This document shows, one piece after another, positions 39,001-42,000 of a stretch of 64,000 bases of DNA. Source of the stretch: Escherichia coli. Its GTDB lineage: Bacteria > Pseudomonadota > Gammaproteobacteria > Enterobacterales > Enterobacteriaceae. The stretch's first letter is position 1; every line of letters starts with the position of its first letter. A program made the position numbers. The DNA lies in NCBI RefSeq assembly GCF_016026235.1, contig NZ_CP065613.1; one strand, written 5' to 3'.

Positions 39001-42000
39001 CGTTGGCCTCAGCGATTAAGCAGTCAGGGCAGCATGAAATTTTTTCTCTGTCCTCGCCATTACGATCGCTCCACACCAGTATATGCGTGTGATATTCGCC
39101 ATGTTTTTCGCAATATCCGCGACCTTCACGCATCAGGCAGGAACGATAAGGCCATGGCTTTTCGCCCTTCTGAGCAAATGCAATCTCTGCCCGTAACTCA
39201 TCCATTCGCGCCTGTAGTCTTTTTTGTTGTTCACGCAGGTTAAACGTCATCATCGCTGTCACCTCAGAATGTCAGTTTGTCACTGGATTTACCGAATTTG
39301 TCAGACATGGCTCCCAGGCCAGCCAGGACATCGACCTGTCGCTGTCGCCCACCTCCGGGAGCGGCTGGCTGTTGCCAGAAGTCTTCGAAGTGACGATCGG
39401 GTCCAAAGAACGTCGCTGCCTGCTTCACGAACTGTGTGCCGTTATTTCCTGTGGCACGTATCCAGGCGGCATACCGCTTCACGCCATCAAGCATGGTCTC
39501 CGGTTTTATTCCCTCCCTGATACGGGCTTTCCAGGCTTTGAAGGCTGCGGATTTTGAGTTACCACCAGCACGTTTTGGATATTCCTGCCAGGCCTGTTCA
39601 AATTCCGGTGAATATTCCTGTCGGGCAGAACGCGCTGGTGCAGACGCGTCAGCGGATGCGCCAATAGTGTTTTTACTCTCTGTAGTATTCTCTGAAGTAA
39701 TCTCTGTTGTATTCTCTGTAAGATCGAAATTGGTTTTCCCTTCTCCGCGGCGAGGGGTTTCCCGTGTCCGCGGTGAAGGCTTTCCCTCCTCCGCGAAATT
39801 GGGTTTTACAGTTTCCCGAAAACGGGTTTCCCCATTTCGGGAAAACTGATTGTTTTCATTGATAATTTCATTAAGGCGCTCACAATCTATACGGTAGAAC
39901 ATTTTGTGCTCAAGACGCTTGTTGGTTTCAACCAAAATGCCTCTGGACACAAGATGCTTACGCGCTACAGCCTGTTGTTCAAATGTAAGTCCGGTTTCGT
40001 GTTGTATCTCTTCACGCGTTTTATGTACGCCTTCCGCTGCATGTGCTTTATCCTGCCAGTAAAAAATCTGACCAAAGAAAATAACAGCGTGCGGACTTCC
40101 CATGTATTTAACGAGCCCAGGGTAATAAGCAACCGGATGTCCAAAATCGAGCAGAAGATCAGACGGACGCATAGCCACCTCCCAGGCGTTTAAACATTTT
40201 TCCGGACTGAAACGCCACCAGCGGATAACTCAGGGTATGAGTACGTCCCTGAACCTGGCAGACAACCTTCTGGCTTTCTGTATTGACCAGGCAAACCCGC
40301 AGAACGTGGCCGTTGCTGGTGGTGAACCACTGCCCCACTCGGGGGCAACGGTTGTATCGGTGATACAGGGAATTAACGATGCGGCGAATCATGGACGCAC
40401 CTCCTTGTCAGAACCATTCAGCCTGGAATCAACAAGTGCAGCACCAAAAACAGCATCACCTACACGGTCGTACAGTTTGCTGGCCAGCGGAGATTCAACA
40501 GCCTTAAGCATTGGGTAAAGCTGGCTTGTCCAGATTTGATGGATTTCACGCAAATGCAGGTATACGCCTCTGGCGTTTTGTGCGACAGATGACATGTCAG
40601 CCGCACCAGCTCCTGATAAGCTCCTCTCCATCTGGTTAAAGGCATTGATGTATGCCTCTTTGAACCGGGCGGCACGTTTACCAGTGAAGCCCATAGCAAG
40701 GAAGGCGAAGCCGTCGCGGGTGATTTGGTAGCAGGGAAGTTTGCGAGTACCGCCGTTGGGCTGGCGTACCAAAATTGATGTCTCCGCAAAATTGCGGGCA
40801 CAAAACTCTGGAGAACAATCCAAAATGCGGATCTTTTTCAGAACATCGTCATGACGTTTAGAGAAGAAGTTGGCAACAGCCAGGGATGAAGTAACAGCCT
40901 GACCATCAACGATGGCAATTTCAGGTTGAGTGAGGGTTGGGATCGTAGCCATGATGGCAGCCTCTTTGGTGATTTTTAATAACTCACCACCAAAGCTTCT
41001 CACGGCAATAGGTGGTGAGACGTACAGGGGTGAGAAACCGGTCACCAAAGAACCCGGCCCAACCGAAGTTGGCCCTGCACGCCCCACCATAATTTGGGCG
41101 TAATGCTGCTCATGACACAAAAAAACCGCAAGAGCGCGGTTGTGCGCTTTGGTGAATTCCGGGTTCTCACGCCCGGCACCCGCTTTATAAGGTGCGGAGA
41201 CAGTGTAACGTCCCGAAATTGCAGAATCAATATCAAAATGTTGTAGCTGTGGACAACGCGAAGCCTTGTTGTTATTGTTTACAACAAGAACCAGAGGAAG
41301 CTTTAAATGCCATCCAGACTGTATAAACAGTTCATCCGTCATCTCGGTGAATCTGAATACATACGAATCCGCATATGGGAAGTGGAGCCTGCTGTATTGG
41401 GTAGCCAGCACAACTACAAATACAGCATGGCTTATGTCGTTGATGGCATGTGTGTGATGCGTTACGACAACGAACGGGGTAAAGGCGATCACAAACACAT
41501 TGGTAGTCAGGAAGTCAGCACCAGCTTTGTCACCATTGAACAACTGCTCGCTGATTTTCTGGCTGACGTTGAATCCATCCGCAGAGGTATCTGACATGAG
41601 AACCGTAACAATCCGAATCGAGTCAATGGATAATTTCACGGCTGATGTGCTGTCTGCGTTCCAGGAAGCAGCTACCGGAGCAAAAGCAACCAGAGAAAAC
41701 GTTATTTCATTTCCTGACTGGCAAATGATGCATAAGGTACTGACACCAAAACGCATGGACATTCTGATGGCAATGACTGGTGCCGGAGAAATGTCCATCC
41801 GAAAAATTGCAGCCCTGGTTGGACGTGATGTAAAAAGCGTGCATACTGACGTGACCGCACTCATCAGCAACGGTTTACTGGAAAAAAGCGAGCGCGGAAC
41901 GTCATTCCCGTATGACGACATCCACTTTGATTTTACGCTGGGCAAGGCGGCGTAATTTTTCGTATATACCGTGCCGTCATTCCGGCGGCGCTTCACACTC

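Follow-up and report, generated by a model that had tools for sequence, protein, structure and literature searches.

The subject of this report is a two-gene cassette that lies in the early-right operon of an Escherichia coli prophage, in opposite orientation to the operon, and that was analysed within a stretch of 64,000 nt (assembly GCF_016026235.1, contig NZ_CP065613.1), hereafter the window. A first-pass annotation had described two plus-strand open reading frames (ORFs) of 95 and 119 amino acids separated by 1 nt, and both were confirmed at the same coordinates: the first ORF, tumE, ends with TGA at 41592–41594, and the ATG of the second follows at 41596. The cassette is probably a 747-bp moron that carries a type II toxin-antitoxin (TA) pair of the TumE superfamily and that sits antisense in an operon whose own reading frame has been kept free of stop codons across the insert. 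The features of the locus are collected in Table 1.

The product of tumE contains RYDNERGKGDHKH, as read in the sequence. Its assignment to the DUF6516/TumE type by the first-pass annotation was correct: the protein matched Pfam PF20126 with 56.9 bits (E=2.1e-15; cut-off applied, 23.4 bits) over profile positions 6–81 of 81, PF20126 was present in all 114 homologues found, and phrog_16135 matched with E=2e-58. The motif DNERGKGDHKH forms the putative active site. Conservation was scored over 31 homologue sequences: G60, D61, H62, and H64 show no variation, and conservation is 90% or higher from D54 to K59. The AlphaFold2 (AF2) model of TumE (predicted local distance difference test score, pLDDT, of 94) comprises six strands and one C-terminal helix, and a structure search with it found no solved structural relative, as was likewise reported for the family, which has no relative in the Protein Data Bank (PMC10584680). 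The copy of NCBIfam that was searched contained no model matching TumE, although PGAP gives the TumE name. Public records of TumE are often a 65-aa truncation (for example, WP_004978631.1).

The 119-aa partner matched Pfam PF25212 (HVO_A0114) with 87.2 bits (E=6.5e-25; cut-off applied, 27.6 bits). Its AF2 model (pLDDT of 86) consists of an N-terminal strand-helix module followed by a helix-turn-helix plus wing, and Foldseek matched this model only to DNA-binding domains of the ArsR/MarR/CggR type with a winged helix-turn-helix (wHTH). The winged-HTH protein that had been described as the usual companion of such toxins is thus correctly identified. We infer that this TumA-like protein is a putative antitoxin and autorepressor, the N-terminal beta-alpha module of which would neutralise TumE. 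Public records also name the wHTH partner as 'glycosyl transferase family 1'. RefSeq lists proteins identical to TumE as 'toxin-antitoxin system TumE family protein' (299 contigs) and the exact partner as 'HVO_A0114 family putative DNA-binding protein' (492 contigs), so that the earlier designation of the cassette as a novel system does not hold; the exact proteins already carry names and the family is known.

The TumE-TumA superfamily (DUF6516/PF20126) was defined by Durairaj et al. (Nature 2023; PMC10584680), who found six gammaproteobacterial TumE/TumA pairs to be toxic and neutralised in E. coli. The TumE of Allochromatium tepidum, the one examined by labelling, lowered 35S-methionine incorporation, and an RNase activity for the family was proposed but not proven (PMC10584680). 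The tested pairs belong to subcluster 1a and come from sulfur and methane oxidisers; DUF6516 lies predominantly downstream of its partner in clusters 1, 2, 4, and 6, and one cluster-1 partner is a remote RelB homologue (PMC10584680). A literature search found no functional papers on TumE or DUF6516 after that study, and the remark of the first-pass annotation that the family has little experimental characterisation is borne out by this single experimental paper. The window pair resembles the published TumE-TumA pairs in its toxin domain, in the DNERGKGDHKH motif, in being a two-gene unit, and in having a predicted DNA-binding partner (PMC10584680). Whereas the tested toxins are approximately 115–135 aa long (as judged by fragment length) and adjoin a small partner, the window toxin of 95 aa comes first and is paired with a 119-aa HVO_A0114 wHTH protein, and the pair is carried by a prophage moron. 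By sequence, the window pair is therefore a variant with toxin-first order and an HVO_A0114 partner, set apart from the experimentally tested pairs.

The toxin-first order is general among the relatives of the window pair. Gene order was sampled at 155 loci, drawn from viral contigs and species-representative genomes; at 146 of them, the gene immediately 3' of TumE on the same strand encodes a TumA homologue. With one genome per species considered, a TumE-TumA-like pair occurs at no fewer than 590 loci across Proteobacteria, and many copies are chromosomal and standalone. Few E. coli strains have the cassette itself, which was present in only 17 of 5426 complete genomes.

The boundaries of the insert were given by comparison with prophages. 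Stx1_14040 (L003) is collinear with the window over 40000–41233 and over approximately 41981/41984–42882 and lacks exactly the 747 bp in between, which bears out the earlier suggestion of an insertion. In phiSTEC1589-Stx1c the cassette occupies another genome position and homology is confined to 41238–41996 (77% identity), indicating that the unit moves as a block. Like the morons of lambdoid prophages, it is a discrete promoter-gene-terminator insert that is present or absent between collinear phages; unlike morons, which are described as lying between genes, the window cassette lies inside a reading frame that is open across it.

Between the left edge of the cassette and tumE we identified a promoter-like site, for which phiSTEC1589 and many further lineages have an exact TTGACA as the –35 element. 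The first-pass annotation had pointed to a perfect 8-bp inverted repeat upstream of the Shine-Dalgarno (SD) sequence, CTTGTTGT/ACAACAAG at 41265–41272 and 41281–41288, as a plausible operator. This repeat is real, conserved, and overlaps the promoter, but it is one of two dyads (O1 and O2, spaced 28 nt apart) rather than a single site. An 8-bp inverted repeat by itself is weak evidence. The core TGTTGT-N8-ACAAC, however, has just two occurrences in the window, at 41239 and 41267, where 0.03 would be expected. In the phiSTEC1589-Stx1c copy the half-sites of the dyads are kept and the spacers differ, and the two dyads persist across approximately 20 diverged lineages with both half-sites changing together (TGTTGT/ACAACA, GTGTTG/CAACAC, TGATGT/ACATCA, and TTGGC/GCCAA). 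Such co-variation of half-sites as dyads is good comparative evidence for a dimeric DNA-binding protein, for which TumA is the obvious candidate. At the other end of the cassette, a terminator-like hairpin was detected on the plus strand only. At the same Roi/Rha–isrK junction of the cassette-less phage PhiR49_2 (L004, approximately 2350–2457), a plus-strand terminator-like hairpin (AGCCGGG-ttact-CCCGGCT followed by T7) is present with no plus-strand gene, and it may be the scar of a lost moron.

Table 1. Features of the cassette and of the surrounding operon in the window.
Feature	Coordinates	Strand	Evidence
Whole inserted cassette (moron), 747 bp = 249 codons	41234..41980	+	Absence in Stx1_14040
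Operator-like dyad O1, TGTTGT-N8-ACAAC(g), overlapping the –35 element	41239..41258	+	Repeat scan, conservation
Promoter-like site of tumE: TGGACA, 17 nt, TATTGT, with TG before the –10 element	41250..41278	+	Promoter scan
Operator-like dyad O2 (the inverted repeat noted earlier), enclosing the –10 element; core TGTTGT-N8-ACAACA at 41267–41286	41265..41288	+	Repeat scan, conservation
Shine-Dalgarno sequence GAGGA, 8 nt before the tumE ATG	41294..41298	+	Read directly
tumE, putative toxin, 95 aa, PF20126 TumE/DUF6516	41307..41594	+	Pfam, PHROG, motif, AF2
tumA-like partner, 119 aa, N-terminal beta-alpha module and wHTH, PF25212 HVO_A0114	41596..41955	+	Pfam, AF2, Foldseek
Intrinsic-terminator-like hairpin and T-run at the end of tumA, plus strand only	41933..41965	+	Terminator scan
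593-codon operon-strand frame, ATG 42170, SD GGAAGG	40389..42170	–	ORF reading, stop statistics
Rha-family antirepressor-like gene, start MATIPTL..., isrK/C4 control	40389..40953	–	Phage_pRha E=5.6e-27, TIGR02681
C4 antisense RNA (RF01695)	41008..41094	–	83.4 bits
isrK-family RNA (RF01394), terminator-like hairpin 41141–41124	41119..41195	–	63.6 bits
Predicted isrK-C4-Rha promoter: TTGATT 41230–41225, 17 nt, TACACT 41207–41202	41202..41230	–	By eye
DUF4222 gene	41977..42153	–	PF13973 E=2.8e-15
Rha-family gene #1 (Roi-like), early-right operon	42173..42922	–	Phage_pRha E=2e-10, RefSeq Rha family

Toxin-first type II TA operons such as higBA and mqsRA are autoregulated through palindromic operators. 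The window unit shares with them the upstream position of the toxin gene, the tiny gap, the downstream gene for a DNA-binding antitoxin, and two dyads over the promoter; the protein families are unrelated, and DNA binding by the window partner is a prediction. As a working model, TumE would block translation, by homology with the tested members of its family, and the wHTH partner, as a dimer, would bind the two dyads over the –35 and –10 elements of its own sigma-70 promoter. The pair would in this way be autorepressed and expressed from the prophage in a lysogen when pR is off, and the one-way terminator would end the unit. In our judgement it is likely, or even highly likely, that the cassette encodes a type II pair that regulates itself and is expressed from the prophage.

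On the opposite strand, the first-pass annotation had set a 620-aa reading frame against the two genes as the possible real gene. This ORF exists (40389–42251), and the frame appears to have been kept open by selection; tumE and tumA nevertheless remain well supported as genes, as discussed below. Within it, a 593-codon frame can start from an ATG 2 nt after the stop codon of Rha-family gene #1. Antisense to the cassette, it passes tumA, tumE, and the tumE promoter; it then crosses isrK and C4, where Pfam places its 'Ash' region, and joins the Rha gene on the left in the same frame. Gene callers call this 593-aa ORF on 18 contigs.

To assess the absence of stops, the codons of tumE and tumA were resampled synonymously, with the proteins kept and with the codon usage of six neighbouring genes. 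The minus frame of the window contains zero stops, compared with 5 expected (P=0.002). It is likewise stop-free through tumE-tumA in all eight lineages in which the cassette is nested in a prophage operon (the window, L005, L017, L019, L027, L028, L029, and L030), with 2.5–5 stops expected and probabilities of zero stops of 0.002, 0.013, 0.019, 0.048, 0.0015, 0.005, 0.0065, and 0.014. Ordinary control genes of the window gave P values of 0.07–0.88 in the same test. In contrast, the frame is open in none of 28 non-nested lineages with a G+C content of 0.54 or less, which have a minimum of 2–11 stops. Fisher's exact test of open frames versus non-nested lineages, computed on seven isrK-C4 lineages, yielded p=1.5e-7.

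The open frame extends well beyond the two genes. In six of the eight nested lineages the stop-free interval measures 1.7–2.2 kb and begins 95–341 nt beyond the tumA stop, and in these six it crosses both genes, the promoter, and the two RNA genes isrK and C4 before it enters the gene downstream, a Rha antirepressor where the ORF was read. The plus-strand non-coding parts, that is, the tumE-tumA gap, the promoter, isrK, and C4, are thus also free of stops in six of eight. In all six lineages with a readable upstream junction, an in-frame start codon with an SD sequence overlaps or abuts the preceding minus-strand stop (TGAcaATG, GTGA, ATGA, TGATG, ATGA, and an ATG 10 nt before the stop). The insert length is divisible by 3, and every nested lineage has a tumE-tumA gap of either 1 or 4 nt. 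One of these lineages, L019, has the open frame but neither isrK nor C4.

On a TumE+TumA tree, lineages with an open frame are intermingled with closed ones. L080, which is sister to the window clade and lies between two chromosomal dehydrogenase genes, has 5 minus-frame stops, and L083, sister to L028 and outside the nested context, has 2; closed-frame examples are flanked by chromosomal dehydrogenase genes or belong to a P4-like island. As a predictor of the open frame, reverse orientation to both neighbours was tried and rejected, given that approximately ten closed-frame lineages share it.

The peptide encoded by the minus frame is less well conserved than the two plus-strand proteins. Between two E. 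coli variants, amino acid identity is 86% and 84% in the plus frames versus 66% in the minus frame, and 64–68% of the differences (64% in tumE) fall on third codon positions of the plus frames, at 78% nucleotide identity. A PHROG search with the antisense peptide found no family, and the family matches of the long ORF are limited to its C-terminal 187 aa and to the Ash (RNA) region. Given that the peptide is poorly conserved and matches no family, selection may act on translation across the cassette rather than on its product, a proposal for and against which we find the balance to be even. We hold in the same balance the corollary that both strands of approximately 650 bp may be read by ribosomes, with the TA cassette lying antisense in a translated early-operon frame.

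The sequence to the left of the cassette provides a setting for such a frame. The first-pass annotation had noted a structured leader; a structured RNA does lie there, but it proved to be two RNA genes, isrK and C4, identified by Rfam above the gathering scores applied (50 bits for RF01394 and 45 bits for RF01695). Because the leader is the isrK + C4 RNA pair, the left Rha gene is, by sequence, part of an antirepressor unit of the P1 immI-like or Gifsy-1 isrK type, which probably has its own promoter. The predicted promoter has 8 of 12 consensus matches, below the threshold of the promoter scan, and its position relative to the isrK 5' end is kept in L017, L028, L029, and L030; the left edge of the cassette lies 3 nt upstream of its –35 element. 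In Gifsy-1, the promoter PisrK has been established experimentally, and AnrP is translated only if ribosomes also translate orf45 across the C4-like region; the sequence of the orf45 peptide is not conserved, and one Shigella has orf45 fused to anrP (PMC4825925). The window locus resembles Gifsy-1 isrK-orf45-anrP and P1/P7 immI c4-icd-ant in the order of isrK and C4 followed by a Rha-type antirepressor gene. It differs in that the upstream frame is fused in frame to Rha and reaches 650 nt past the isrK promoter, through the antisense of a TA cassette. We found no description in the literature of an antirepressor upstream frame that extends antisense through such a cassette.

The sequence data establish family membership, the pairing of the two genes, the limits of the cassette, the conserved and co-varying operators, the adjacent RNA genes, and the context-specific lack of stops; toxicity and its neutralisation, DNA binding, and the purpose of antisense translation are predictions. 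The cassette is inserted against the early-right operon, between the 3' end of the DUF4222 gene and the –35 element of the predicted isrK-C4-Rha promoter. In the explanation that we prefer, it would there interrupt a translated stretch of the operon, so that the operon-strand frame across it would be kept stop-free. Ribosomes that start at the stop of the upstream gene would translate the antisense strand of tumA and tumE and, in six of eight lineages, go on through isrK and C4 into the downstream gene. The transit of ribosomes, and not the peptide, would matter, either by preventing polarity or by supplying upstream translation for the antirepressor; a stop in the backward insert would break this coupling or leave the pR transcript open to Rho before the replication genes are reached.

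Several observations weigh against this explanation. The case for antisense translation consists entirely of statistics and comparison of sequences. Since the eight open lineages are related, their P values are not fully independent and are not to be multiplied. The start at 42170 overlaps DUF4222 in another frame, so that the true start of the window frame is uncertain, and in phiSTEC1589 the open frame covers the cassette only and has no coupled start. Approximately ten of the closed-frame lineages also have minus-strand ORFs on both sides. With regard to the TA pair, the architecture of the validated subcluster 1a is not matched by the window pair, and the published experiments cover longer TumE toxins listed next to a small partner, from a cluster in which the partner is predominantly upstream, and not the window subfamily. 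Moreover, the AF2 model of TumE has six strands and one helix, whereas the published description is of an alpha+beta fold in which two helices pack on seven antiparallel strands (PMC10584680).

Among other readings, the least probable by far is that the long minus-strand ORF is the sole real gene and the plus-strand ORFs are its shadows. The calls of the 593-aa ORF by gene callers would be in keeping with it, as would older RefSeq annotation, in which a 318-aa Rha ORF takes the place of a missing or shortened tumE. We rejected it because both plus-strand ORFs match curated Pfam families well above threshold, because identity is higher in the plus frames than in the minus frame, and because the cassette has its own promoter, SD sequence, and terminator; in addition, the pair occurs mostly without such a minus ORF among the proteobacterial loci, and the family matches of the long ORF are restricted to its C-terminal and Ash regions. 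It also seems unlikely, though far less so, that the stop-free frame is an untranslated accident of composition or shared ancestry and that the cassette is no more than a TA moron in reverse orientation. In favour of this, the register opposite tumE is the antisense one that generally has few stops, given that only TTA, CTA, and TCA create them, the open lineages are related, and the antisense peptide has no PHROG family. Resampling that preserves the proteins nevertheless gave P=0.0015–0.0475 per lineage, non-nested lineages of similar G+C content are all closed, and the close relatives L080 and L083, outside the nested context, have stops. In six of the eight lineages the open frame also continues through plus-strand non-coding parts, and coupled start codons recur at every readable junction.

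A regulatory role for the cassette appears slightly less improbable than such an accident but still doubtful to us. TumA, or TumE-TumA, bound at O1 would then also control isrK-C4-Rha and link the state of the toxin to induction. In its favour, a back-to-back arrangement with isrK and/or C4 is found in seven lineages whose TumE is 52–100% identical to that of the window, O1 lies 1–8 nt from a conserved TTGATY –35 element across lineages (8 nt in the window), and the distance from the isrK 5' end to the tumE ATG is 111, 111, 111, 108, and 102 nt. However, most lineages have the same cassette without an isrK neighbour, and L019 is nested and open in the absence of both RNAs; the recurrent adjacency could stem from recombination at conserved isrK/C4 sequence, and the conserved spacing is equally predicted by maintenance of a reading frame. 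The first-pass annotation had favoured abortive infection or superinfection exclusion. On this account the cassette would be mainly an anti-phage module, with infection or host shut-off depleting a labile TumA and freeing TumE to stop translation. Many type II TA pairs act in abortive infection, a prophage moron with its own promoter is expressible in a lysogen, and TumE relatives are common on viral contigs (74 loci from IMG/VR among the related loci). The search of PADLOC-DB 2.0 was negative for TumE, however, with no significant match (best E=0.045), and TumA matched only the wHTH part of the CasR and Csa3 models of PADLOC. A literature search found no paper tying DUF6516/TumE to defence, and the many standalone chromosomal copies also speak against such a role. 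The proposed role thus gained no support, and we regard the anti-phage module as a possible but unfavoured alternative; it is compatible with, and not exclusive of, the preferred explanation of a TA moron in a translated operon.

Two further loci were considered as additional cases of an open antisense frame and were not used. In the window, an annotated plus-strand 97-aa ORF at 43000–43293 (phrog_4753) is nearly covered by a minus-strand 117-aa ORF (43021–43374) that starts 10 nt before the stop of a cro-like gene; the plus-strand ORF has one antisense stop, which is not significant (P=0.26). In phiP27 (L160, 3200–3943), L13 is annotated on the plus strand with 223 aa and its minus frame is fully open (no antisense stop, P=0.0003), but the minus ORF is probably the real gene: its ATG follows the stop codon of L12, a cro-like gene, by 1 nt and is preceded by the SD sequence GGAGG, and the annotation is probably on the wrong strand.

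With regard to the neighbouring genes, the two flanking Rha genes, which had been described as duplicated, are both of the Rha family and on the minus strand, but their identity is only 38%, over 32 residues, too low for recent duplicates, and duplication was rejected. The last two codons and the stop codon of the DUF4222 gene derive from the cassette side of the junction. A 77-aa ORF (40159–40392, minus strand) located 3' of the second Rha gene matches phrog_1153 and, weakly, the DUF4222 family phrog_1343, so that a pair consisting of a Rha gene and a small DUF4222-like gene appears twice in the operon. Pfam Phage_ASH (PF10554) at 40920–41207 on the minus strand coincides exactly with the isrK + C4 stretch, and the 'ash family protein' and 318-aa 'Rha' ORFs of RefSeq are translations of the isrK/C4 RNA genes, which explains why such ORFs collide with tumE in RefSeq; the frame of the Ash region is nevertheless open and in frame with Rha in many phages.

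The RNA content of the region varies. In the proviral contig L017 (145–2902), four tandem isrK-C4 modules are packed into less than 3 kb on the left side of the tumE cassette. In phiSTEC1589-Stx1c-type prophages, a match to the sRNA-Xcc1 family (68.6 bits; L005, 2826–2916, and L012, 1773–1863, minus strand) is placed between the Rha and antirepressor genes. Other Rfam matches in the window are STnc100 (33705–33894, minus strand), a tRNA (34058–34130, minus strand), ES036/CssrF (55832–55874, plus strand), and MicL (59811–60118, minus strand). MicL is a core-genome small RNA, and the window therefore probably runs from the prophage into the chromosome.

Taken by itself, the TA pair is not much more than an E. 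coli prophage representative of a family that has been validated only once. What is new at this locus is the toxin-first architecture with an HVO_A0114 partner, the well-defined double operator, and the context-specific open frame on the opposite strand. The clearly predicted operator makes the pair an easy system for the first biochemistry on the toxin-first branch of the family, and the finding explains a recurrent conflict in RefSeq between truncated TumE entries and 'ash family' or long 'Rha' ORFs drawn over RNA genes. TumA at O1 might also touch the isrK promoter. If the antisense frame is translated, the locus would be a clean natural case of long antisense dual coding maintained by selection, with a built-in comparative control in that the same genes exist with and without the opposite-strand constraint, and the codon choice of TumE and TumA would be constrained by the opposite strand. 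It would show that a phage can tolerate a backward cassette in an operon without loss of translational coupling and would extend the Gifsy-1 result that upstream translation is needed for antirepressor expression. The transit of ribosomes would then drive translation of the antirepressor, and with it the downstream replication genes, or avoid polarity, and at induction convergent transcription and translation from pR would switch off or unbalance the TA pair.

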